From Gammaproteobacteria bacterium (lineage in GTDB: Bacteria > Pseudomonadota > Gammaproteobacteria > JBCCGL01), in assembly GCA_965277715.1 (NCBI GenBank), contig OZ255836.1:832001-896000 (forward strand): DNA of 64,000 nt, in the 5' to 3' direction. The notes under the pieces were generated by a model. The model did not search any database, was not told where the DNA came from, and saw nothing but the letters and a program-made list of their open reading frames with translations. Numbering within the stretch: position 1 is the first letter of the stretch; each line of letters opens with the position of its first letter. The position numbers were made by a program, and so were the translations under genes. Of this stretch, positions 2-29,321 are shown piece by piece.

Positions 2-1057
2 ACCATCTTACCCAAAGGCTTTCGCCAATCGGTGGCGGAGGATTACTGGCATTTAAAAAACCATGTGCAGATTTGGGATGTCGGTTGTCAACGGCAGGTT
101 GAATTGCGCGGGCCGGATGCGGCCCGGTTAACCCAGCTAATGACACCGCGTGATTTGCGCAAGGCAGCGCCGGGGCACTGCCTGTACGCACCGATGGTCG
201 ACGAGCGGGGCCACTTATTAAATGACCCGATCATCCTGAAACTGGCCGATGACCACTTCTGGTTATCGATTGCCGATGCCGATGTACTGCTATGGGCAAA
301 AGGCCTGGCACTGGGTATGCAGCTCGACGTGGCCATCGAGGAGCCGGATGTCTGGCCACTGGCGGTACAGGGGCCAAAATCCGACGATCTCATGGCGCGT
401 GTATTCGGTGAAGCAGTGCGTGAAATACGCTTCTTTCGTTTCGCAACGCTGGCGTTTTCCGGTCACCCATTGATTGTCGCCCGCTCGGGTTACAGCAAAC
501 AGGGCGGCTTTGAAATCTACCTGGATAAACCCGCGCTGGGGTTGGACCTCTGGGATGCGCTCTGGCAGGCCGGGGCTGATTTGCACGTATTGCCCGGTAG
601 CCCCAATTTAATCGAACGCGTGGAGAGCGGGCTGCTTTCCTACGGCAATGAAATGACCCGCGATGACAACCCGCTGGAGTGTGGGCTGGAAGACTATTGC
701 TCACTCGATGGCGGTGTCGACTACATCGGGCGCAACGCCTTGCAGCGCATCGCTGCGCGGGGCGCGCAACGGTCGATTCGCGGCGTAGTATTTGATGGTG
801 AACCGTGCCCGGCGTGCCAGCACCCTTGGCCGTTAACCGTTAATGGCGATAAGGCGGGGTATATCACCACGGCCATCTGGTCGCCACGTTTTAACCATAA
901 TGTGGCGCTGGCGATGCTGGAAAAAGCCTATTGGGATGCGGGTACGCAGGTGATGGTTGAAAGCGGTGATGGTTTGTTAAGGCAGGGGATTGTTACCGCG
1001 CTGCCAATGGCGGATACCGATGTAGATTTATTTAACACTGCTATTCCCCGCCAGTAA
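2..1057 (+). CDS. dmdA: DMSP demethylase DmdA (GcvT-family aminomethyltransferase), 5'-truncated by window edge
   Basis: Frame open from the window edge (TILPKGFRQSVAEDYWHLKNHVQIWDV). Motifs RQVELRGPDA, LLNDP, PLAVQGP, ARSGYSKQGGFEIY and ERVESGLLSYGNEMT match the DmdA subfamily as I recall it. Confidence 0.8.
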   Translation, partial: TILPKGFRQSVAEDYWHLKNHVQIWDVGCQRQVELRGPDAARLTQLMTPRDLRKAAPGHCLYAPMVDERGHLLNDPIILKLADDHFWLSIADADVLLWAKGLALGMQLDVAIEEPDVWPLAVQGPKSDDLMARVFGEAVREIRFFRFATLAFSGHPLIVARSGYSKQGGFEIYLDKPALGLDLWDALWQAGADLHVLPGSPNLIERVESGLLSYGNEMTRDDNPLECGLEDYCSLDGGVDYIGRNALQRIAARGAQRSIRGVVFDGEPCPACQHPWPLTVNGDKAGYITTAIWSPRFNHNVALAMLEKAYWDAGTQVMVESGDGLLRQGIVTALPMADTDVDLFNTAIPRQ

Positions 1058-4000
1058 TGTCTCGATGCTATCCCAGGTTTCCAGTGGGTAGCGATCCATT
1101 TCCCCATGCTCATTTATCGCGTTAAACCCGAGAAATTGCCATGCGTCCTCGCTTAGAGCCAGTAATTTTCCCGCATGTCCTTCACGCGTAAAGTATTGCC
1201 CATCCGGTAAATACTCAATGGTGTAAATACATTCACCGGACTCGGCGTTCCATATTTTGATGGTTTGGTCATCGGAAGCGGAGGCGATGCGTTTGCTGTT
1301 GTGGTCGAAGGCGACGCTGTTAATTGTGTTGTTATGCCCTTTTAAGGTGTGAATACATTGTGCGGATACGGCGTTCCATATTTTGATGGTTTGGTCATCG
1401 GAAGCGGAGGCGATGCGTTTGCTGTTGTGGTCGAAGGCGACGCTGTTAATTGTGTTGTTATGCCCTTTTAAGGTGAGAATACATTGTCCGGATACGGCGT
1501 TCCATATTTTGATGGTTTGGTCATCGGAAGCGGAGGCGATGCGTTTGCTGTTGTGGTCGAAGGCGACGCTTTGAACCCAATTATCATGCCCTTTTAAGGT
1601 GTGAATACATTGTGCGGATACGGCGTTCCATATTTTGATGGTTTGGTCATTGGAAGCGGAGGCGATGCGTTTGCTGTTGTGGTCGAAGGCGACGCTGAGA
1701 GCTAGGCCTTCATGCCCTTTTAAGGTGAGAATACATTGTCCGGATACGGCGTTCCATATTTTGATGGTTTGGTCAAAGGAAGCGGAGACGATGCGTTTGC
1801 TGTTGTGGTCGAAGGCGACGCTGTTAATTGTGTTGTTATGCCCTTTTAAGGTGAGAATACATTGTGCGGATACGGCGTTCCATATTTTGATGGTTTGGTC
1901 ATTGGAAGCGGAGGCGATGCGTTTGCTGTTGTGGTCGAAGGCGACACTTTGAACCCAATCATCATGCCCTTTTAAGGTGTGAATACATTGTCCGGATACG
2001 GCGTTCCATATTTTGATGGTTTTGTCATATGAAGCGGAGGCGATGCGTTTGCTGTTGTGGTCGAAGGCGACGCTGTTAATTGTGTTGTTATGCCCTTTCA
2101 AGGTGAGAATACATTGTCCGGATACGGCGTTCCATATTTTGATGGTTTTGTCATCGGAAGCGGAGGCGATGCGTTTGTTGTTGTGGTCGAAGGCGACGCT
2201 GAGAACAGTATCTGAATGCCCTTTTAAGGTGTGAATACATTGTCCGGACTCGGCGTTCCATATTTTGATGGTTTTGTCATATGAAGCGGAGGCGATGCGT
2301 TTGCTGTTGTGGTCGAAGGCGACGCTTTGAACCCAATGATCATGCCCTTTTAAGGTGAGAATACATTGTGCGGATACGGCGTTCCATATCTTGATGGTTT
2401 TGTCATATGAAGCGGAGGCGATGCGTTTGTTGTTGTGGTCGAAGGCGACGCTGAGAACAGTATCTGAATGCCCTTTTAAGGTGAGAATACATTGTCCGGA
2501 CTCGGCGTTCCATATTTTGATGGTTTTGTCATATGAAGCGGAGGCAATGCGTTTGCTGTTGTGGTCGAAGGCGACGCTGTTAATTGTATTGTTATGCCCT
2601 TTTAAGGTGTGAATACATTGTCCGGATACGGCGTTCCATATTTTGATGGTTTTGTCAAAGGAAGCGGAGGCGATGCGTTTGCTGTTGTGGTTGAAGGCGA
2701 CGCTGAGAACTAGGCCTTCATGCCCTTTTAAGGTGAGAATACATTGTGCGGATACGGCGTTCCATATTTTGATGGTTTGGTCAAAGGAAGCGGAGGCGAT
2801 GCGTTTGCTGTTGTGGTCGAAGGCAACGCTTTTAACCCAATCATCATGCCCTTTTAAGGTATGAATACATTGTCCGGATTGTGCATCCCAGAGTTTGAGG
2901 GTGTTGTCGTGTGAAGCGGAGGCGATCAGCAGGCCATCATGTGAAAAAGCGGCGGCGCTAACTGCATCGCGGTGTCCGACAAACGGGGTGGCAGGGCGAG
3001 CGGGCGGGCGGGCGATTTTTTTCGCCAGCGGATGCTGGCAACCGGCATTAAACGGTGGGTGCCCGCTTATCGCCGACGGCCATACCACGTCATTGAGCTG
3101 GCAGTGCAGCCACTGGCTACGGTGTTGCTGTGGCGTAGCCAGCCGCGCAGCAGAAAAATCGTTGTGGTAGAACACCGCCCCGCTCAAATCGGCCTGGCTG
3201 AAGTCGGCGGATTGCAGCGCGCTGTCGCGCCATAATACCCGTTGCAGATTGGCCTGTTGAAAGTGGACGTGGTTGAGCTGTACCTGGGTAAAGCGGCTGT
3301 CGCTAAGGTCGGCCCTGTCGAACGCCGCACCGCTGAGGTCCACATCGTTCAATACCAGGCCAGCCAATTGTGCACCGTGGAGCTGAAAACCTTGCAGGCC
3401 GGGCTGGGGTTGCTGGCGCGGCGCGGCGTATAAGCTGTAGTGAAATAGCGCTTCGCTGGCCTGACGAAGGTAGTGCTGCTTCCAGCCTGCCAATATGGCC
3501 AATAAATTGTCGGCGCCACTGTGCAGTTGCAGCAGTTCGCCGAGAAATTGCAGGGTTTCATTGGAGGGGGGGGCGAGACACCAACCCTCTTGCCGATTCT
3601 CGTCTATTGCCCGCAACAGATAACAGGCCAGAAAGTACTCCTGGATTGAGGTGTGGGCAAAGCGAAACTGATCGCTATTGGCACGCACCAACAGGGTGGA
3701 GTTGCGCAAATCGTTTTCCAGTAATTCCTGTATGCCGGTTTTGGCCCCAGCCCGGATTTTGGGGTGGGCGTATAGCCACTCCTCCAGCCAGGCTTCCAGG
3801 GTCTCGACCGGGCAGGCGCGCAGCCCTTCGCGCCAGAAGTGCGCCGCCAGGTCTTCCAGCAGGTATTGCTTGTGCCGGGGCAGTAACTGGTGCTTGCCGT
3901 CATCGCGGCGGAACAGGCGCTCGACCATAATGCGGTACAGCCGGGCGGCGTTGATGGTCTCGCCGCGTTGGTAGGCTAACTCCAGGCTGGGAATATCGTT

Positions 4001-5896
4001 GGCGATAAGGTTTAGGGTGAGCGGGCGCGTCGCCAGGCCACTGAGGTCGTGAATCTTCGCCAGCAATGCCTCGATTTCGAGCGCCTTCTCTGCGCCAAAA
4101 CGCTTGCCCAGGTACTCGCGAATCTGCTCGGTTTCCAGCGGCAACAACTGCCAGCCCTGGTAGTCTTCACCGCTGCGCGCCTCGCGCAAATAGCCCTGCA
4201 AAAACGCGTTTTGCTCGCTTTGGTTGCGAAAGAAATCACTGCGACAACTTATCACCAGACGGCAGCGGGTGTTATCGAGTAGTGCATTCACCTCGGCGGG
4301 CAGCGGTGGCTGACCCGGTCTGTCCTTGGCTTGTTGCCGCCATTGGTTGCGCTGGCTGAGCGCCTCGCGGTAGTCCGGCGGGAACACCCGCCAAAGCTCG
4401 CGTAAAAAGTGCGCTTGCGCATCGCGGTCGAGGTGGGTGAGCTTTTCGTCGAGACCGTCGAAGATCACCAACGCCTCGCCGTTGCGGGCCATATCGACCA
4501 AGTGCTGCCCGTCGATATCCCGCTCTTCTGCCAGGCGGAGAATCTCCGCCAGTATCTGCTCCAGCGTCGGCAGGCGGTGGTCGGCGAATACCGGCGTCAG
4601 GCGCAGGTCGATATACACCGGCAGCGGGTAGATATGCGGTTGCTGCTGGTGTTTCTCTTCGAGCTGCCAGGCGAGCATTTTACACGTGAAGGTTTTACCA
4701 CTGCCAAATTCGCCGAGAATACCGAATAGCGGTGCGACAGGTTTGGTGTCTTTTACCCAGGATAGAACAGTATCCAGAATCCGGCTTGGCGCTTCACTGG
4801 CGTTCGACACCGTTTCACCGACATTGCGCATATCGGTTTCCTGGGCGGATATATCGACATAGGCATCGTATGGGTAGCTTGCGTCCTGGTAGGGTAGGTC
4901 GATAAGTTTTGCTGCACGGTAGGCACTTGGGGTGCGCTCACGTGGGGCTTGGTTATTCCGCCGTGTCATCCGCTGGTCAATCGATTCGACCAAGCCACGA
5001 ATAAAGCGCTTTTGCAGCACCATGGTAATGCACTCTTTGAAGAACGTTGGCTTAACGATGTCTGACAGGGTGTAAAGCTGGCGTTGCTCTAAGCCACAGA
5101 TAGTGAAAAGCGCCTCTATCTCGACGCTTTCCAACCCCACGGGTAATACGCCTTTTTCCAATAGCGGTGGCACTTCGTGGTCTTTTATATAACCGCTGTT
5201 TAAAAAACCGGGTGATACCATCAGCAAACCTGCATCGGCTTGGGCAATGGCTTGTTGAATCGTCTGATGCCAGTTCTCGCCGATCAGAATGTCGCTATCC
5301 CGCCAGAATGTGTAAGTCTTATTCGGGCATTTTTGCTTGGCGATACGGGCAAACTCCGCGATAAAGTTTTCCACATCCTGGGCATTTTTTCGGCTGTAAC
5401 AGACAAAAAGTGTGTGCTCGATTTTGGTTGTAGATTCGGGTTTGTTTACGGGTTCAGGAATGGCGGAGAGGTCGACGTAAGTTTGCTGCGGATATTGTTC
5501 GTTACTGGGGTTGAGCCGCCGGGTTAGACCGCTTTGCTGGCTGATTGTGACCGGCGTGCCCTGCCACCACAAACGGCGTTGTGCCAGAGCGGTTTGTTTG
5601 CGGCTATCGCCTTGCAACTCCAGGCGGTTCATGCCAGACAACTCAGCCGCCTGCTTAATGCGCCCGCGAAACTTGCGCAGCTCCGCCTGCGCCTTATCGT
5701 CTTCCAGATGATCAAACAGCGCCGCCAGCACCTGGGCCATATTCAACTTACCATCGTCCAATAACAACGTCTGGATCGACTCCAGGCGCTGCATATCGCT
5801 GGAACCCAGCTCGTTTTTGTCCAGTAATTGGCTGATTGCACCTGTAGCCTGGCGCTTGTTCAATACGGGAATCGGTTTTTTTGCCTTGCGTTTCAT
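1028..5896 (-). CDS. NLR-like STAND protein: N-terminal wHTH-like region, TIR domain, NACHT NTPase, pentapeptide repeats, 14 WD40 repeats
   Basis: TIR_2 motifs LFVCYSRK, FWRDSDILIGENW and LLMVSPGFLNSGYIKDHEVP. Walker A GEFGSGKT, Walker B LVIFDGLDE, FRFAHTSIQEYF. A(D/N)L pentapeptides. 14 GH...W(N/D) repeats of 42 aa. Confidence 0.92.
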   Translation of the reverse strand: MKRKAKKPIPVLNKRQATGAISQLLDKNELGSSDMQRLESIQTLLLDDGKLNMAQVLAALFDHLEDDKAQAELRKFRGRIKQAAELSGMNRLELQGDSRKQTALAQRRLWWQGTPVTISQQSGLTRRLNPSNEQYPQQTYVDLSAIPEPVNKPESTTKIEHTLFVCYSRKNAQDVENFIAEFARIAKQKCPNKTYTFWRDSDILIGENWHQTIQQAIAQADAGLLMVSPGFLNSGYIKDHEVPPLLEKGVLPVGLESVEIEALFTICGLEQRQLYTLSDIVKPTFFKECITMVLQKRFIRGLVESIDQRMTRRNNQAPRERTPSAYRAAKLIDLPYQDASYPYDAYVDISAQETDMRNVGETVSNASEAPSRILDTVLSWVKDTKPVAPLFGILGEFGSGKTFTCKMLAWQLEEKHQQQPHIYPLPVYIDLRLTPVFADHRLPTLEQILAEILRLAEERDIDGQHLVDMARNGEALVIFDGLDEKLTHLDRDAQAHFLRELWRVFPPDYREALSQRNQWRQQAKDRPGQPPLPAEVNALLDNTRCRLVISCRSDFFRNQSEQNAFLQGYLREARSGEDYQGWQLLPLETEQIREYLGKRFGAEKALEIEALLAKIHDLSGLATRPLTLNLIANDIPSLELAYQRGETINAARLYRIMVERLFRRDDGKHQLLPRHKQYLLEDLAAHFWREGLRACPVETLEAWLEEWLYAHPKIRAGAKTGIQELLENDLRNSTLLVRANSDQFRFAHTSIQEYFLACYLLRAIDENRQEGWCLAPPSNETLQFLGELLQLHSGADNLLAILAGWKQHYLRQASEALFHYSLYAAPRQQPQPGLQGFQLHGAQLAGLVLNDVDLSGAAFDRADLSDSRFTQVQLNHVHFQQANLQRVLWRDSALQSADFSQADLSGAVFYHNDFSAARLATPQQHRSQWLHCQLNDVVWPSAISGHPPFNAGCQHPLAKKIARPPARPATPFVGHRDAVSAAAFSHDGLLIASASHDNTLKLWDAQSGQCIHTLKGHDDWVKSVAFDHNSKRIASASFDQTIKIWNAVSAQCILTLKGHEGLVLSVAFNHNSKRIASASFDKTIKIWNAVSGQCIHTLKGHNNTINSVAFDHNSKRIASASYDKTIKIWNAESGQCILTLKGHSDTVLSVAFDHNNKRIASASYDKTIKIWNAVSAQCILTLKGHDHWVQSVAFDHNSKRIASASYDKTIKIWNAESGQCIHTLKGHSDTVLSVAFDHNNKRIASASDDKTIKIWNAVSGQCILTLKGHNNTINSVAFDHNSKRIASASYDKTIKIWNAVSGQCIHTLKGHDDWVQSVAFDHNSKRIASASNDQTIKIWNAVSAQCILTLKGHNNTINSVAFDHNSKRIVSASFDQTIKIWNAVSGQCILTLKGHEGLALSVAFDHNSKRIASASNDQTIKIWNAVSAQCIHTLKGHDNWVQSVAFDHNSKRIASASDDQTIKIWNAVSGQCILTLKGHNNTINSVAFDHNSKRIASASDDQTIKIWNAVSAQCIHTLKGHNNTINSVAFDHNSKRIASASDDQTIKIWNAESGECIYTIEYLPDGQYFTREGHAGKLLALSEDAWQFLGFNAINEHGEMDRYPLETWDSIETLLAGNSSVK
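1222..2985 (-). repeat. Intragenic tandem array of 126-bp WD40 units (13 near-identical plus 1 diverged)
   Basis: The motif ATGCCCTTTTAAGGT recurs at 126-bp spacing from about 1334 to about 2847. Protein consensus LKGHxxxxxSVAFDHNSKRIASASxDxTIKIWNAxSxQCIxT. Confidence 0.97.
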
Positions 5897-6095
5897 CGGT
5901 TTGCTCCAGATGCCTGGCGACAGTGTAGATAACGGTGAGAGCTATATCAAGGACTATTTAGGACGATTTTAGACTATTGTGTTTATTTGCAGCACTGTCC
6001 GCAGTCATTATCCAGACATCATCCATTAAGTGGTAATAGGAGGGTTGCAATTTCTAAGCCTGTGCCCTTATCAAAGGAACTGATAGTATTCATCT

Positions 6096-6968
6096 ATGAA
6101 AGTTTCACTTGATCATTTATCTGAACAGAAACAGCGCGAGCTGAAATGGGCCACGGATATTGTCCGCGAAGAAGCCAACCCCGAAATGCTCATTTTGTTT
6201 GGCAGCTACGCTCGCGGTGACTGGGTGGAGGACTTAAACCCGGAAACGCTGCATTACCGTTATCAAAGCGATTTTGATTTGTTGGTGGTTACAGAAACCC
6301 GCAAAGAAGCCGGTAAAATTGAGCAAAACAACGCGCTTAACCAGCGTTTAATGAAAGCGATACACAGAACCCCAATCAGCCTGATTGCTGAGGACATCCA
6401 ATTTGTTAACCGGCGTTTAAGAAAGAGCCAGTATTTTTACATTGACATCAAACGTGAAGGTATAACCCTTTATGATTCAGGGCGGTTTGAATTAGCCGAA
6501 CCAAAGGAACTTAATGTAGAAGAAAGAAGGCGACTAGCGGAAGAAGATTTTGACTATTGGTTTGGCAAAGCATCAAGGCTTTTAAATTTCTATGATTTTG
6601 GTATTAGTGAAAAAGCTTATAATGAGGCAGCATTTCAGCTTCATCAAGTAACTGAAAGCTTATATGGAACAATATTGTTGGTTTTTACTCGCTATAAACC
6701 CAGCACCCATGATTTAGCAAAATTGAGCCAACGAGTCACCAGCATTAAACCACAGTTTCTTAGCGTATTTCCGCAGGGGACTGAAGAAGAAAAAAACCAC
6801 TTTGAGTTACTGCGTAAAGCTTATGTCGATGCACGTTACAAGCCGAGCTACAAAATCACTCGGCAAGAATTGGAATGGTTGGCAGGACGGGTGCAACAAC
6901 TAAAATCTTTAACGGAAATGCTTTGCAAGGAAAAAATTGAAAGTTTTAGGGAGTGCTCAAACAAATAA
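6096..6968 (+). CDS. Minimal nucleotidyltransferase (MNT) fused to HEPN domain
   Basis: LFGSYARGD...SDFDLLVV nucleotidyltransferase signature. C-terminal AAFQLHQ, KPSTHDL and AYVDARY are typical of HEPN domains fused to MNT. Confidence 0.88.
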   Translation: MKVSLDHLSEQKQRELKWATDIVREEANPEMLILFGSYARGDWVEDLNPETLHYRYQSDFDLLVVTETRKEAGKIEQNNALNQRLMKAIHRTPISLIAEDIQFVNRRLRKSQYFYIDIKREGITLYDSGRFELAEPKELNVEERRRLAEEDFDYWFGKASRLLNFYDFGISEKAYNEAAFQLHQVTESLYGTILLVFTRYKPSTHDLAKLSQRVTSIKPQFLSVFPQGTEEEKNHFELLRKAYVDARYKPSYKITRQELEWLAGRVQQLKSLTEMLCKEKIESFRECSNK

Positions 6969-7128
6969 ACATAGCAAATACCCAAACAATCAGTTTCTGG
7001 AAGATGTCACTGTGGCGCATTAGAATATGACGTTATTGCCACTGCAATAGTTGCAGGCTTAGCGCTAAATATCGAACGGTCAGTCGATGTTTTTAGATTA
7101 AAATTAAAACAGTTTTTTGGAATTAAAA

Positions 7129-9396
7129 ATGTCTGATAACTTATTGAATAACATTACAAAAAATTTGCAAGAAAGCACCGATAATGACACTTTTTGCACG
7201 CGCTTCTCTTTTCCTGCAACCGACTTTCCAGTCGAGATAAAACACCTTGGGGAAATAAACTTCCCCGTTTCGACCCGAATAGCCAAAGAGATAATTGATC
7301 AAGCTCAGCTAGCACCCTTCGGCTGGCGGGATCAAACCATAGTAGACACAAGAGTGCGCAATGCCTGGGAAATAAAAAAATCAAAAATCAAGCTACCTGG
7401 TACAAGCATGGAGCAGATTCCTGAAATGCTAGAACGCATAAAGAAAAACCTAAATATGGCCGCTGACGCCACCTTGGTGCCTGAGCTTCACAACTTGGTT
7501 ATCTACGAAAAAGGCCAGTTTTTTTCCAGCCACCAAGACACAGAGAAATGCAAAGATATGATCGCCACCATGGTGATTTTGCTACCATCAAACTTCAAGG
7601 GAGGCACTTTGACAATCGATCGACAAGGTGATGTGAAAAAATACACCGCACCCAGAACCACTAACCACCTTCAAGTCATCGCCTTTTACACGGATTGTGT
7701 TCACGAAGTAAAAAAAATCACCTCGGGCTACCGCATAGCCCTCACTTTCAACTTGCTGCTAAAGGGCGCTGGCACCCTCCAGCCTTTGCAAAACCCAGCG
7801 CTAACAGAGTCGATAAAAGCATACTTCTCGGAAGACGAGAGGCAAGCGCTAAACTGCGCGCAATCAAATCACCCAACCTGGTTAGTTTATCTACTGGATC
7901 ACCAATACTCCCAATATGGCCTAAGTTGGGGACACCTGAAAAGTGCGGATCGCACACACGCCTCACAACTGCTTGCCGCTGCGGAAGCACTCGACCTCGA
8001 AGCGCATTTATCTTTGGCGGATGTTCACGAGGTCTGGCAAACAGAATCGGACTATTCCAATAGTGGGTACTACGGTTACAGGGGGGGCGACGACGATGGA
8101 GAAGATGAAGATATATCGGGCGATGATGTGGAGTGCATCGAGTTTATCGAGGGTGATTGCGAACTCCGACGTTGGGTGAATTCAAACGGTAAGAAACGGG
8201 CTTGGAAGGGGCATTACGTGCCAGATGAAATGGTAGGCTGGACGAAGGCGATGGATAACTTCGAGCCTTTCGATTCCGCGTATGAAGGCTTTATGGGAAA
8301 TTATGGCGACACGATGGAAAAGTGGTATCACCGCGCCGCTATTACACTTTGGCGAAAAACCGACGCATTCCCCAGCCTATTTGCTATCGACGCGAATGGC
8401 ACTCAGAAAAAAGTGCAAAAAATGCTCGATACCAACTTTGAACAAGGTGTGGCGGCTCTAAAGACGCTTTTACCTCAATGGGAACGCAAGGTAGGCTCCG
8501 ATGGTGTACAAATATCTGAGACGCTAAAACTCTGTCTTTTGGTAAAAGATAAAGCGTTAGCGACCCAATTGCTCGAAGGCTATGGAATGGAGGCCGTATG
8601 CAGGAAGCACGGCGTCGGACTAAGAAACCTGGCCCGAAGTTATGGACAGAAATGGTTGGTGGAGCTCCTCGATATTTGGAGCAAATCAGATCGTGACTAC
8701 TTTGATCCGATTGCTGGTCTCGCCTTTCTGATAAACATTTTTCGCGATGATTCAGAGGTGGCGGCATGGCTTTGTGCTTATCAGTTTAAATGGTTCGAGG
8801 TCTCAGACAGTGTGGCTCAAGAACATGATAGCCAGGTGTCGATAGTGAAAACCCGCAATAAACGCGTCTCCCATGCCGTCGATTTTCTGAAATCCTTAGC
8901 CGCCCTTGGGGAAAACAGTATTATGGCGAAATCGACCCGGCACTTCCTCGGTTATCCCAGACTATATGATGCTGTCACCTTGGCAGACATGGTGCTCGGC
9001 TTACAAGACGAAAATTTATCGCCTAACATCCAGAAATTAACCGCAGAAGCGAGGAAGCGGCTCAAGGCGTCGACAGCTAAAACCAGGAAGGAAGGTGACT
9101 ACTCGATTTTGGAAATCGATACCTGTAAATGTAAAGATTGTGTTGTGCTTCACGGCTTCCTCAAAAGCAAAAAAGAAACGCAATATGTTTGGCCTCTGGC
9201 ACAAGGCAGGCGATACCATATACACCGAGTCATAGATGATATGGGCATCGGTGTTTCCCATCAAACCCAGCGGGAGGGCTGCCCGTATAAGCTCGTTCTG
9301 AAGAAGCTCGATAAGTATTTCAAAAATGAAGCGCGTGTAAAGACCATGCAGTCTGAAAAGCTTGCAAAAATTGAAGCAATTTATAGATTAAGATGA
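7129..9396 (+). CDS. Large 2OG-Fe(II) oxygenase superfamily protein
   Basis: HQD...HEV...R iron/2OG motif (YEKGQFFSSHQDTEK, CVHEVKKITSGYRIALTFNL), an acidic tract and a C-terminal CKCKDC...H cluster. ATG at 7129 chosen over TTG at 7117. Confidence 0.8.
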   Translation: MSDNLLNNITKNLQESTDNDTFCTRFSFPATDFPVEIKHLGEINFPVSTRIAKEIIDQAQLAPFGWRDQTIVDTRVRNAWEIKKSKIKLPGTSMEQIPEMLERIKKNLNMAADATLVPELHNLVIYEKGQFFSSHQDTEKCKDMIATMVILLPSNFKGGTLTIDRQGDVKKYTAPRTTNHLQVIAFYTDCVHEVKKITSGYRIALTFNLLLKGAGTLQPLQNPALTESIKAYFSEDERQALNCAQSNHPTWLVYLLDHQYSQYGLSWGHLKSADRTHASQLLAAAEALDLEAHLSLADVHEVWQTESDYSNSGYYGYRGGDDDGEDEDISGDDVECIEFIEGDCELRRWVNSNGKKRAWKGHYVPDEMVGWTKAMDNFEPFDSAYEGFMGNYGDTMEKWYHRAAITLWRKTDAFPSLFAIDANGTQKKVQKMLDTNFEQGVAALKTLLPQWERKVGSDGVQISETLKLCLLVKDKALATQLLEGYGMEAVCRKHGVGLRNLARSYGQKWLVELLDIWSKSDRDYFDPIAGLAFLINIFRDDSEVAAWLCAYQFKWFEVSDSVAQEHDSQVSIVKTRNKRVSHAVDFLKSLAALGENSIMAKSTRHFLGYPRLYDAVTLADMVLGLQDENLSPNIQKLTAEARKRLKASTAKTRKEGDYSILEIDTCKCKDCVVLHGFLKSKKETQYVWPLAQGRRYHIHRVIDDMGIGVSHQTQREGCPYKLVLKKLDKYFKNEARVKTMQSEKLAKIEAIYRLR

Positions 9397-27374: not shown

Positions 27375-29321
27375 GTGATTACTTACCGGACACCAATACT
27401 TATGCATTGTTCTTGGCTAACAACAAAACATTCTCGATACCTTCCAAATAATGTTTTGGATGAGTCTTTACATTATCGGGGTGGAAGCACGACATTGATT
27501 ACGCTCTATAATGAGCCTGGAGAGCAACTGGCACTGAGTTTACTCGCACTTACTAAATCGATTCAATGGTCGCAAGCAAAAAACGCAGCAACCCAGAATA
27601 ACGCTAAACAAATCTTGCCACACACAATATGTATTATCGCAGACGGTTACCACAACCTGAGTGACTCCGCAAAAGCAGTTTTTAAACACTTAGGGAAAGA
27701 CCTGGAACGGGATGAGCTATCCACTAGCGATATGCTAATTCACAATACTTCCATCAATACGGCAGAACTTATTCAATCATTGGAAGGTATCAATTTCCAT
27801 CAAACCAGCTTGCATAAGAATACCGCAGTCAAACTATTACTGTGTATTAAACGCGAAAATTCTGGCAAGTTAGACACTCATTGGTGGTATTACAGATTAC
27901 TGTGCCCAACAATAGAGCCACAATTTTGTTTTCATCTAGATACCGCAACAGAGCCATGCCTCGAATCTATTTACCACATGGAACAGTGTATGCTTGACAA
28001 TAGCGAGGTGGGAGCGGTCGCTAGCAGCGTATGTATAAAACCACTCGAAAATGTTATTGAGATACTGAATATATGGCAATACCGAAGCTTGCTAAACTCC
28101 GTGTATCTTGAGTGGCCGACAGATGAGCTTCTGTCGTATTTAAATGTTATTCCCGGCCAGTATGGTGTAATGCGCTGGGAGGCAATTGCTGATGATAAAG
28201 AGCGGGATGATGTGCAACGAGAAGGTTTACAGCCTCTTGATATATACTTTAAAGGGCTTGGAAAATTGCCGCCATTTGAATCTTCCCTTTACTTGGCTGA
28301 GGATCGTGTACTTTGTAAAGAGGTGATACTTCGGCCAAAGCACTCATGGAAGCTCAAACACGTTGACCACGCCATTGCTTATAGTGACGCTTGCGAGAAC
28401 TTACCTGAGTTGTTGCAACAACGTCGACGCTGGAATGTTGGCACACTAGCCTCTCGTGCAAGCTACCTTTTACGTTTACCCCAATGCCTAACATCAGATG
28501 AGCACTCCCGCCTATCTAAACTTAAGATGCTTTTTTTTGGTGCTATACAAGTTATTCGTCTTCTAATGGATTGGTTTTCACTACTGGTACCGCTAGCCTA
28601 TTACGATATTGCCAGCAGTGCCCTTGCTACAACAAAATCGGGTTCGCTAACATATTATTACAGCTTTGGCATTTCTGTTGTCACGGCGCTCATGCTGATT
28701 TGGCAGTTTTATATATCGCTAAGGGGTAAAACAGACGAGGTTGCAGAATACTCGCTATGGCTATCTATTGCCATTCAAGCGATATTTGCTTTGAGTATGT
28801 ATCCTCATTTGCTTACTAGCGACAAGGGCGGCATCGCCTTATTATTAATGTCATTCTCGCTACTTTGCGTTCCATTTATCTCTGCATACAAAAAGTTCGT
28901 GCCAACGTCTGCGATTTTTCGTGACAGTATTTTTTATTTTGTCTGTTCTCCCATTATCTCTTACCAGCTATGGATATTTGCTATTTGTAATACTCACCAG
29001 ACTAGTTGGGGCACCAAAGGATTACAGGCGCCAAACCGCTATGGGAACAAACACCGCCAAGCCGAATTTACAAGATTTCGCTGGTATATTCTTAGCTTAT
29101 GGATCATCTCAAGCAGTGGTATGACGGTGGCCCTATATAAGTCACTCACTGCAAACGAATATAACGGCGTTATTTTAGCCCTGGGCGTACAAGCGGCGAT
29201 AATACTGCTCGCCACTGTCGCCACGATGATACGAGCGACACTCTCGACAATGAGACAAGGGGTAAAAACAGCTCACAAGTACTTCATCCGAGCCCTGCGG
29301 ACAATTGGAATTACGGGGTAG
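27375..29321 (+). CDS. Chitin-synthase-like GT2 glycosyltransferase (fungal division-1-like motifs), start uncertain
   Basis: ITLYNE, ICIIADG, KRENSGKLDTHWW, LDTAT, VIPG, YLAEDRVLC, QRRRW, several TM helices and SWGTKG. Confidence 0.82.
   Translation: MITYRTPILMHCSWLTTKHSRYLPNNVLDESLHYRGGSTTLITLYNEPGEQLALSLLALTKSIQWSQAKNAATQNNAKQILPHTICIIADGYHNLSDSAKAVFKHLGKDLERDELSTSDMLIHNTSINTAELIQSLEGINFHQTSLHKNTAVKLLLCIKRENSGKLDTHWWYYRLLCPTIEPQFCFHLDTATEPCLESIYHMEQCMLDNSEVGAVASSVCIKPLENVIEILNIWQYRSLLNSVYLEWPTDELLSYLNVIPGQYGVMRWEAIADDKERDDVQREGLQPLDIYFKGLGKLPPFESSLYLAEDRVLCKEVILRPKHSWKLKHVDHAIAYSDACENLPELLQQRRRWNVGTLASRASYLLRLPQCLTSDEHSRLSKLKMLFFGAIQVIRLLMDWFSLLVPLAYYDIASSALATTKSGSLTYYYSFGISVVTALMLIWQFYISLRGKTDEVAEYSLWLSIAIQAIFALSMYPHLLTSDKGGIALLLMSFSLLCVPFISAYKKFVPTSAIFRDSIFYFVCSPIISYQLWIFAICNTHQTSWGTKGLQAPNRYGNKHRQAEFTRFRWYILSLWIISSSGMTVALYKSLTANEYNGVILALGVQAAIILLATVATMIRATLSTMRQGVKTAHKYFIRALRTIGITG

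Follow-up and report, generated by a model that had tools for sequence, protein, structure and literature searches.

Highly repetitive WD40 arrays and the array of this locus

The closest relative of solved structure of the array reported here is the WRAP propeller of Npun_R6612 from Nostoc punctiforme, which has 14 near-identical blades in two 7-bladed propellers; according to the accessible text of Pereira and Lupas (2022, PMC9218822) it sits on a STAND ATPase that is coupled to a TIR-bearing STAND protein, and it was proposed to take part in the innate immunity of prokaryotes. Hu et al. (2017, PMC5587647), in the accessible part of their study, count 305 highly repetitive (HR) WD40 proteins, of which half are from bacteria; their hotspot sites are diverse and the synonymous divergence (dS) between their repeats is low. 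In fungi, the HNWD proteins (HET-E, HET-D, and HET-R of Podospora) combine a NACHT domain with internally conserved WD40 repeats, show positive selection at surface positions, and reshuffle their repeats, and the available sections of the preprint by Dyrka et al. state that highly internally conserved WD and TPR repeats are a feature that bacterial NLRs have in common with the fungal ones, and that the bacterial proteins might diversify likewise. Here we describe an NLR-like STAND gene in a 64,000-nucleotide stretch (the window) of contig OZ255836.1, positions 832,001 to 896,000, from an uncultured, sponge-associated member of the Gammaproteobacteria. The gene ends in 14 WD40 units, and this array likely serves as the ligand-sensing part of an NLR-like STAND receptor made by a single gene, one that is recombining and diversifying its recognition surface. 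The features of the gene and its array are as follows.

1028..5896, minus strand: whole gene, NLR-like STAND protein of 1622 aa (single open reading frame (ORF) with Pfam domains)
2852..2977, minus strand: WD40 unit 1, diverged (63-70% nucleotide identity to the other units)
1340..2851, minus strand: WD40 units 2-13, the core with high internal conservation (87-97% pairwise nucleotide identity)
1214..1339, minus strand: WD40 unit 14, of the same type but diverged at its 3' end (80-92% nucleotide identity)

An original prediction made from the sequence had placed the array at 1222-2985. The array is real but these coordinates are about 8 bases off, because the units lie at 1214-2977. Tandem Repeats Finder gave one array over 1226-2926 with a period of 126, 13.5 copies, 88% matches, and a score of 2505, and in frame the array resolves into 14 units of 42 aa (126 bp) that span aa 974-1561 (window 2977..1214). 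The median pairwise identity of the units is 0.81 at the protein level, and the identities given above bear out the claim that 13 of the 14 units are almost identical.

Each of units 2-13 has a variable cassette, codons 3-7, and the further variable codons 23, 25, 33, 35, and 39. The cassette is NNTIN in units 4, 8, 10, 13, and 14, SDTVL in units 5 and 7, EGL[V/A]L in units 3 and 11, and D[D/H/N]WV[K/Q] in units 2, 6, 9, and 12. Codon 23 has the alleles F, Y, D, and N, codon 25 has Q and K, and three sites are binary, namely, codon 33 (V/E), codon 35 (A/G), and codon 39 (L/H). The same cassette is found with different downstream alleles; NNTIN is combined with Y-D-K in units 4 and 8, with F-D-Q in unit 10, and with D-D-Q in units 13 and 14. 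All these classes, alleles, and combinations are present as they had been predicted. At codon 25 the alleles form a positional block, K running from unit 3 to unit 8 and Q standing in unit 2 and from unit 9 to unit 14, and the cassette classes are interspersed.

Among solved structures the WD array matched PDB 2YMU best (E 1.1e-200), then the WRAP-T designs and, further down, Apaf-1. Like the prototype Npun_R6612/2YMU, it consists of 14 near-identical WD40 blades placed C-terminally on a STAND NTPase. By the mutual identity of its blades, in protein and in DNA, and by its sequence kinship with 2YMU, the array belongs with the WRAP or HR WD40 arrays. The blade count of 14 was found by sequence and the fold of two 7-bladed propellers is a prediction from the similarity to 2YMU and from what the accessible text says of Npun_R6612. 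There are also differences. As far as the available text of the WRAP study tells, the prototype has just 10 point mutations over its 14 blades and its TIR domain is on a neighbouring STAND protein, whereas this array has 30 segregating sites and a mosaic of four cassette classes, and the TIR domain is in the same chain. The unit here has 42 aa, one residue more per blade in the alignment with 2YMU, and the protein further contains a NACHT domain and, as a spacer, a pentapeptide segment. The array also resembles the HR WD40 proteins in its high internal identity, low synonymous divergence, and diversity at predicted interaction hotspots; the HR study reads this pattern as young duplication with hotspot adaptation, and its accessible part describes no recombination test. 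The protein clearly exemplifies a kind that has been described before, WRAP-type arrays on bacterial STANDs, and is not a new kind of system. The novelty that had been implied for it was too high, such arrays being in print and common in related loci (39 of 80, described below).

Fungal proteins annotated as HET-E/HET-D were among the best matches of the WD region, with 44-53% identity, and the HNWD trait of conserved WD40 repeats with hypervariable predicted surface positions and mosaic units is found here. This protein differs from the fungal HNWD proteins in its bacterial host, its TIR effector, its pentapeptide segment, and its single locus. The HET domain (PF06985) was not found in Pfam scans of the protein, which has TIR in its place. 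Other loci sharing the unit, for which it had been suggested to look, were not found: there is no further copy of the unit elsewhere in the window, no match to the WD part above 58% identity among proteins of 892-2839 aa, none above 54% identity among 50%-cluster representatives of any length, and 0 exact matches to the 45-nt invariant stretch of the unit in two contig collections (metagenome and genome). Since the unit is unique in the databases and window searched, repeat exchange among paralogous loci as in fungi is not supported. Thus, the description of the array as HET-E-like holds as a functional analogy but not as membership.

Variable codons and probable exchange between blades

The variation and recombination statistics of the array were computed from units 2-13. 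As had been claimed, the variation is concentrated at few codons: 17 of the 30 segregating sites fall within the 21 nt (of 126) of codons 3-7, 23, and 25 (hypergeometric p = 1e-9), and pairwise differences per nt are 0.423 in these codons and 0.034 elsewhere, about 12 times denser. The scaffold, that is, the unit outside the ten variable codons, has a proportion of synonymous differences (pS) of 0.066 and of nonsynonymous differences (pN) of 0.008, which gives a pN/pS of 0.13. It had been stated that the units are identical even at synonymous sites; their synonymous divergence is low but not zero and the statement was slightly overstated. The pN of the variable codons is 0.36, about five times the scaffold pS, and this ratio was 4.3 for the array in the analysis of ten arrays described below, so that the nonsynonymous excess proposed as a check on the prediction is there.

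Wu et al. (2012, PMC3419727), in the part of the paper that is available, define the WD40 top-face hotspots R1-2, R1, and D-1 by the motif (V/L/I)-R1-R2-(V/L/I) and by the residue preceding the tetrad Asp. When this rule is applied to the unit (V/I at 6, S at 8, V at 9, and D at 24), codons 5, 7, and 23 become R1-2, R1, and D-1, and codons 3, 4, and 25 adjoin them. The variable codons 5, 7, and 23 are thus predicted top-face contact positions, which agrees with the expectation that the variable residues would be on the propeller surface.

The units are not related to each other in a tree-like manner. By the four-gamete criterion 120 of the 231 informative-site pairs are incompatible, and a PHI-like permutation test gave p 0.0002 (p 0.001 with 13 units kept). 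The distance between two cassettes does not correlate with the distance between their scaffolds (rho -0.18, p 0.15): 1 scaffold nt but 10 of 15 cassette nt separate units 11 and 13, while units that share identical cassettes have 4-5 scaffold nt differences. Cassettes and scaffolds have separate histories and the units therefore appear to be mosaics from homologous exchange between blades. This is the pattern expected from such exchange, either by unequal crossing-over or by gene conversion, and not from a tree-like history of duplication, and it is in line with the intra-array recombination or gene conversion that had been predicted.

The alternative that survives best is a recent one-off amplification of the inner blades from a single blade, followed by point mutation and selection at the contact residues with no ongoing exchange. 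This is the published reading of such arrays in the accessible text of PMC5587647 and PMC9218822, and the low scaffold pS fits it. However, units that are not neighbours can have the same 15-nt cassette on different scaffolds, scaffolds that are nearly the same bear unrelated cassettes, and the incompatible site pairs do not fit a tree. Cassettes that are 9-10 of 15 nt apart on scaffolds that are 1-2 of 111 nt apart are beyond uniform mutation, and selected point mutation would not repeatedly recreate the same codons. We consider a one-off amplification to be rather unlikely for these inner blades, and exchange between blades is the explanation that we prefer.

Codon 35 alternates A, G, A, G, A, G over units 9-14 (window 1214-1969). 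Scaffolds two units apart are the most similar, and the pairs 4/6, 6/8, 9/11, and 11/13 differ at 1-2 nt. The alternation at codon 35 and this likeness hint at an older two-unit higher-order repeat beneath the cassette mosaic.

Diversification directed at a putative sensor of a conflict system is also described in the accessible text on STAND and antigen-sensor systems of multicellular bacteria that are diversified by a diversity-generating retroelement (DGR) (PMC10907252). In those systems there is one template/variable pair, whereas here the variation is spread over 13 repeats. A DGR mechanism was rejected for this array: there was no reverse transcriptase in the 30 window ORFs scanned, and the changes are also at C and G and are not adenine-specific.

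The array in other samples and in related loci

Eight sequencing runs contained part of the stretch, and four of them are labelled sponge metagenome; no RNA run was listed for the stretch. In run X1, 49 of 50 contigs were at least 99% alike and all 30 bins were covered, and therefore every local junction of about 60-140 nt is present in the reads. Run X7 contains a relative whose flanks show 21 differences in a piece of 673 nt (about 3%) and 34 in a piece of 734 nt that also takes in unit 2. In that unit the cassette differs from the window at 10 of 15 nt and is NNTIN-like at 3 of 5 residues, and in unit 1 the changes among those listed fall in codons 4, 5, and 39. In run X2 the flanks are identical to the window, and unit 2 has synonymous alleles of codons 18 and 22 that co-occur in the window only in unit 4. 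These alleles are the outcome expected of an exchange between units 2 and 4 and may have arisen in that way. Array variants among samples are thus seen in unit 2 of both runs, and as read from these contigs the cassette content differs among the bacterial populations of different samples. Much more tentatively, the array could be an actively recombining receptor library in which cassettes are swapped often enough to give sample-specific sensor surfaces on an otherwise identical gene. If so, the variant in run X2 would be a first glimpse of cassette exchange.

Related loci were taken from species-representative genomes of many phyla as the best 80 of 143 confirmed stretches (595 matched). A tract of at least 500 nt with adjacent units at least 80% identical is carried by 39 of these 80 loci, and about 12 have about 14 units, although the ranking may favour arrays, the query itself having one. 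Ten of the 39 arrays, with a period of 126 and an estimated 13.8 or more units, were analysed after dropping units less than 80% identical to the consensus; the in-frame units resolved were, for example, 12 in L010 and 13 in L019. Variation focused on the hotspots recurs in these ten arrays, which come from several phyla: codon 23 is hypervariable in all ten, codon 7 in nine, and codon 5 in eight, and the pN of the variable codons exceeds the scaffold pS in 10 of 10, with ratios of 1.2-12.4. The PHI-like test was below 0.05 in four of them.

The consensus units of different arrays have only 40-82% nucleotide identity, and therefore each array arose or was homogenised independently. The units of our protein (P0001) have no positional orthology to the units of its closest relatives; even for unit 1 against unit 1 of the relatives positional orthology was unsupported (0.46 against 0.44). 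Both observations would also be expected from the one-off amplification discussed above.

No close orthologue was found among the 8000 proteins scored (70 at E <= 0.001), the best non-self protein being 46% identical over the N-terminal 970 aa. In a sister clade, P0002 and P0004-P0007, the NACHT part is 93-96% identical and the WD part is 45-54% identical in nine of ten pairs. The tail is 82-92% identical among these five proteins and 31-36% identical between P0001 and them. Their N-terminal TIR parts fall into two classes, 94-98% identical within and 79-81% between. The pattern in this clade looks like modular swapping of sensor and effector ends. In the array of P0008, a metagenome relative, units 6-7-8 are identical to units 11-12-13, and thus multi-unit segmental duplication occurs too in the family of the NLR-like protein.

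Domain architecture, neighbourhood, and meaning

Pfam scans gave the domain order NNH6 - TIR - NACHT - pentapeptide - 14 WD40 units - tail for the 1622-aa protein. The features outside the array are as follows.

5531..5848, minus strand: NNH6, NACHT N-terminal helical domain 6, aa 17-122 (PF22737, E 2.5e-17, 63.5 bits, cutoff 27)
5126..5407, minus strand: TIR domain, presumed effector, aa 164-257 (PF13676 TIR_2, 33.6 bits, cutoff 28)
5174..5176, minus strand: codon of Glu241, candidate catalytic glutamate of TIR (invariant in 9 of 9 aligned family members)
4094..4720, minus strand: NACHT NTPase domain, aa 393-601 (PF05729, 29 bits, cutoff 26.7)
4691-4714, minus strand: Walker A motif GEFGSGKT, in the NACHT domain
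4445-4468, minus strand: Walker B motif VIFDGLDE, in the NACHT domain
3146..3394, minus strand: segment of pentapeptide repeats that separates the NTPase module from the propellers, about aa 835-917 (PF00805 and PF13599)
1031..1213, minus strand: C-terminal tail, aa 1562-1622, conserved in the closest relatives

With a NACHT domain that has Walker A and B, an N-terminal effector domain, and a C-terminal repeat sensor in one chain, the protein is by its domain content a bacterial NLR-like STAND protein. All 9 aligned family members (9 of 9) share the NACHT-domain residues G395, G398, G400, K401, T402, and F479-E484 (FDGLDE). Glu241 is presumably the catalytic residue of the TIR domain, going by TIR motifs. 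The TIR region had TIR/ThsB-like partial matches in PADLOC, and against solved structures by sequence it had a weak match only (7UXR, E 0.098). The NCBIfam pentapeptide models on the pentapeptide segment were all under their own cutoffs. The GC content within the gene is uneven, being 47% in the TIR part and 60-62% in the NACHT, helical, and pentapeptide parts; GC was also considered as an indicator of whether the array is foreign, and here the 47% of WD units 2-13 compares with 60% in the NACHT part and a window mean of 50%.

The order of effector, STAND NTPase, and repeat sensor is the tripartite logic of the bNACHT/Avs bacterial antiphage STANDs. According to the available text of a 2026 survey (PMC13581612), WD40 propeller sensors occur among prokaryotic defence-associated STANDs, and most of the characterised sensors are TPR-like. 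An immune role for our protein is suggested by its domains only. If it has one, the 14 blades would fold into two propellers as in the closest solved relative, the top faces of the propellers would bind a foreign protein, and binding would free the NACHT NTPase to oligomerise. Oligomerisation would gather the N-terminal TIR domains, which could then act as an NAD-consuming or signalling effector and stop the infected cell.

The NLR-like gene is flanked by a gcvT-like gene, a fusion of nucleotidyltransferase (NTase) and HEPN, and a 759-aa protein like 2-oxoglutarate (2OG) oxygenases, followed by thrS, pheS, and pheT. Two of these neighbours are of interest.

6096-6968, plus strand: NTase and HEPN fusion ORF, divergent neighbour of the NLR-like gene
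7117-9396, plus strand: 759-aa 2OG-oxygenase-like protein with a small 2OG-Fe(II) oxygenase domain, aa 127-212

The NTase-HEPN ORF had a weak PADLOC match to the candidate system PDC-S09, and the 759-aa protein, in which about 550 aa are outside the recognised domain, had a weak PADLOC match to a CRISPR-associated 2OG model. GC is low in this region, 38-44% over 6001-7500 and 43% over 6001-8000. The NTase-HEPN, 2OG-oxygenase-like, and gcvT-like neighbours were rejected as conserved partner genes since they had 0 tblastn matches at E <= 1e-5 in the 80 related loci. The gcvT-like gene (plus strand, ending at 1057) is convergent with the NLR-like gene, and their 3' ends overlap by 30 bases (1028-1057). 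The threonyl-tRNA synthetase (ThrRS) shares 70-73% identity with the closest sequences that carry a name (Microbulbifer, Porticoccaceae, and Thiothrix), and the host is accordingly an uncultured gammaproteobacterium. The Rfam scan gave one tRNA only, and promoter and terminator predictions did not exceed what is expected from shuffled sequence. A 648-aa ORF at window 27375-29321 (plus strand) matches a eukaryote-type chitin synthase (PF01644 Chitin_synth_1, E 7.5e-20), which is unusual in a gammaproteobacterium.

WD40 and other eukaryote-like repeat proteins are abundant in sponge symbionts. It could therefore be argued that the gene does not code for an immune receptor and that its product serves sponge symbiosis or cell-internal regulation, either as a repeat protein of eukaryote-like type or as a signalling STAND ATPase. 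The sponge label of half of the eight runs, the housekeeping neighbours thrS, pheS, and pheT, the lack of a conserved defence neighbourhood, and the lack of a match of the protein as a whole to any known defence family are in keeping with such a role. On the other hand, TIR, NACHT, and a repeat sensor together are the architecture typical of NLR-type death or defence switches, relatives in many free-living phyla indicate that the family is not symbiosis-specific, and the sensor arrays diverge far faster than the NTPase, as conflict predicts. A non-immune role is thus improbable, and less likely than a one-off amplification. That the unit order and mosaic are artefacts of repeat mis-assembly is very improbable, because, although none of the short-read graph contigs crosses the array and the accessible text of a paper on fungal arrays of like kind concerns the need for long reads (PMC12222747), the source contig of 4,294,796 bp suggests a long-read assembly, the ORF is unbroken and, like those of relatives, has exactly 14 in-frame units, and run X1 supports the local sequence.

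Several points weigh against an immune receptor with a recombining sensor surface. Inside the variable codons alone pN/pS is just 1.11, because multi-nucleotide codon differences partly score as synonymous steps. The predicted exposure of codons 5, 7, and 23 rests on a sequence rule, and the variable codons 33, 35, and 39 are outside the predicted top-face positions. The PHI-like test is our own implementation and was not significant in six of the ten related arrays. The cross-sample data are k-mer contigs (Logan) that are broken at the array edges 1265 and 2795 and have no bearing on unit order or number, and a graph path artefact may also account for the unit-2 alleles in run X2. There is no defence-island support because the defence matches of the two neighbours are weak and the neighbours are not conserved beside relatives. 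PADLOC gave only partial domain matches for the NLR-like protein, which therefore belongs to no validated defence family model, and in this it differs from the bNACHT/Avs proteins.

Despite these points, the near-identical blades, the variable codons at predicted contact positions, the separate histories of cassettes and scaffolds, and the differences among samples together indicate that the array behaves as a recombining and diversifying recognition surface. The interpretation given in the original prediction is partly supported, and its mechanistic part held up in every test made. A recombining sensor surface of this type has been described for fungal HET-E-type receptors and has been proposed, not demonstrated, for bacterial NLRs, and the literature searched, subscription journals being outside the search, yielded no demonstration of blade shuffling for a bacterial NLR.

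Catalogues already exist of bacterial NLR-like proteins whose WD40 or TPR repeats are nearly identical. This locus is a clean testable case, with four cassette classes on a homogenised scaffold, statistical evidence for exchange between blades, and hints of differences among samples. Its main value is as a good candidate for asking whether bacteria reshuffle their sensor blades. If the array is indeed an actively recombining receptor library, it would mean that a bacterial NLR diversifies its specificity through the shuffling of cassettes within the gene, and does so on ecological time scales, and this would be a prokaryotic counterpart of the reshuffling in fungal HET-E-type receptors.

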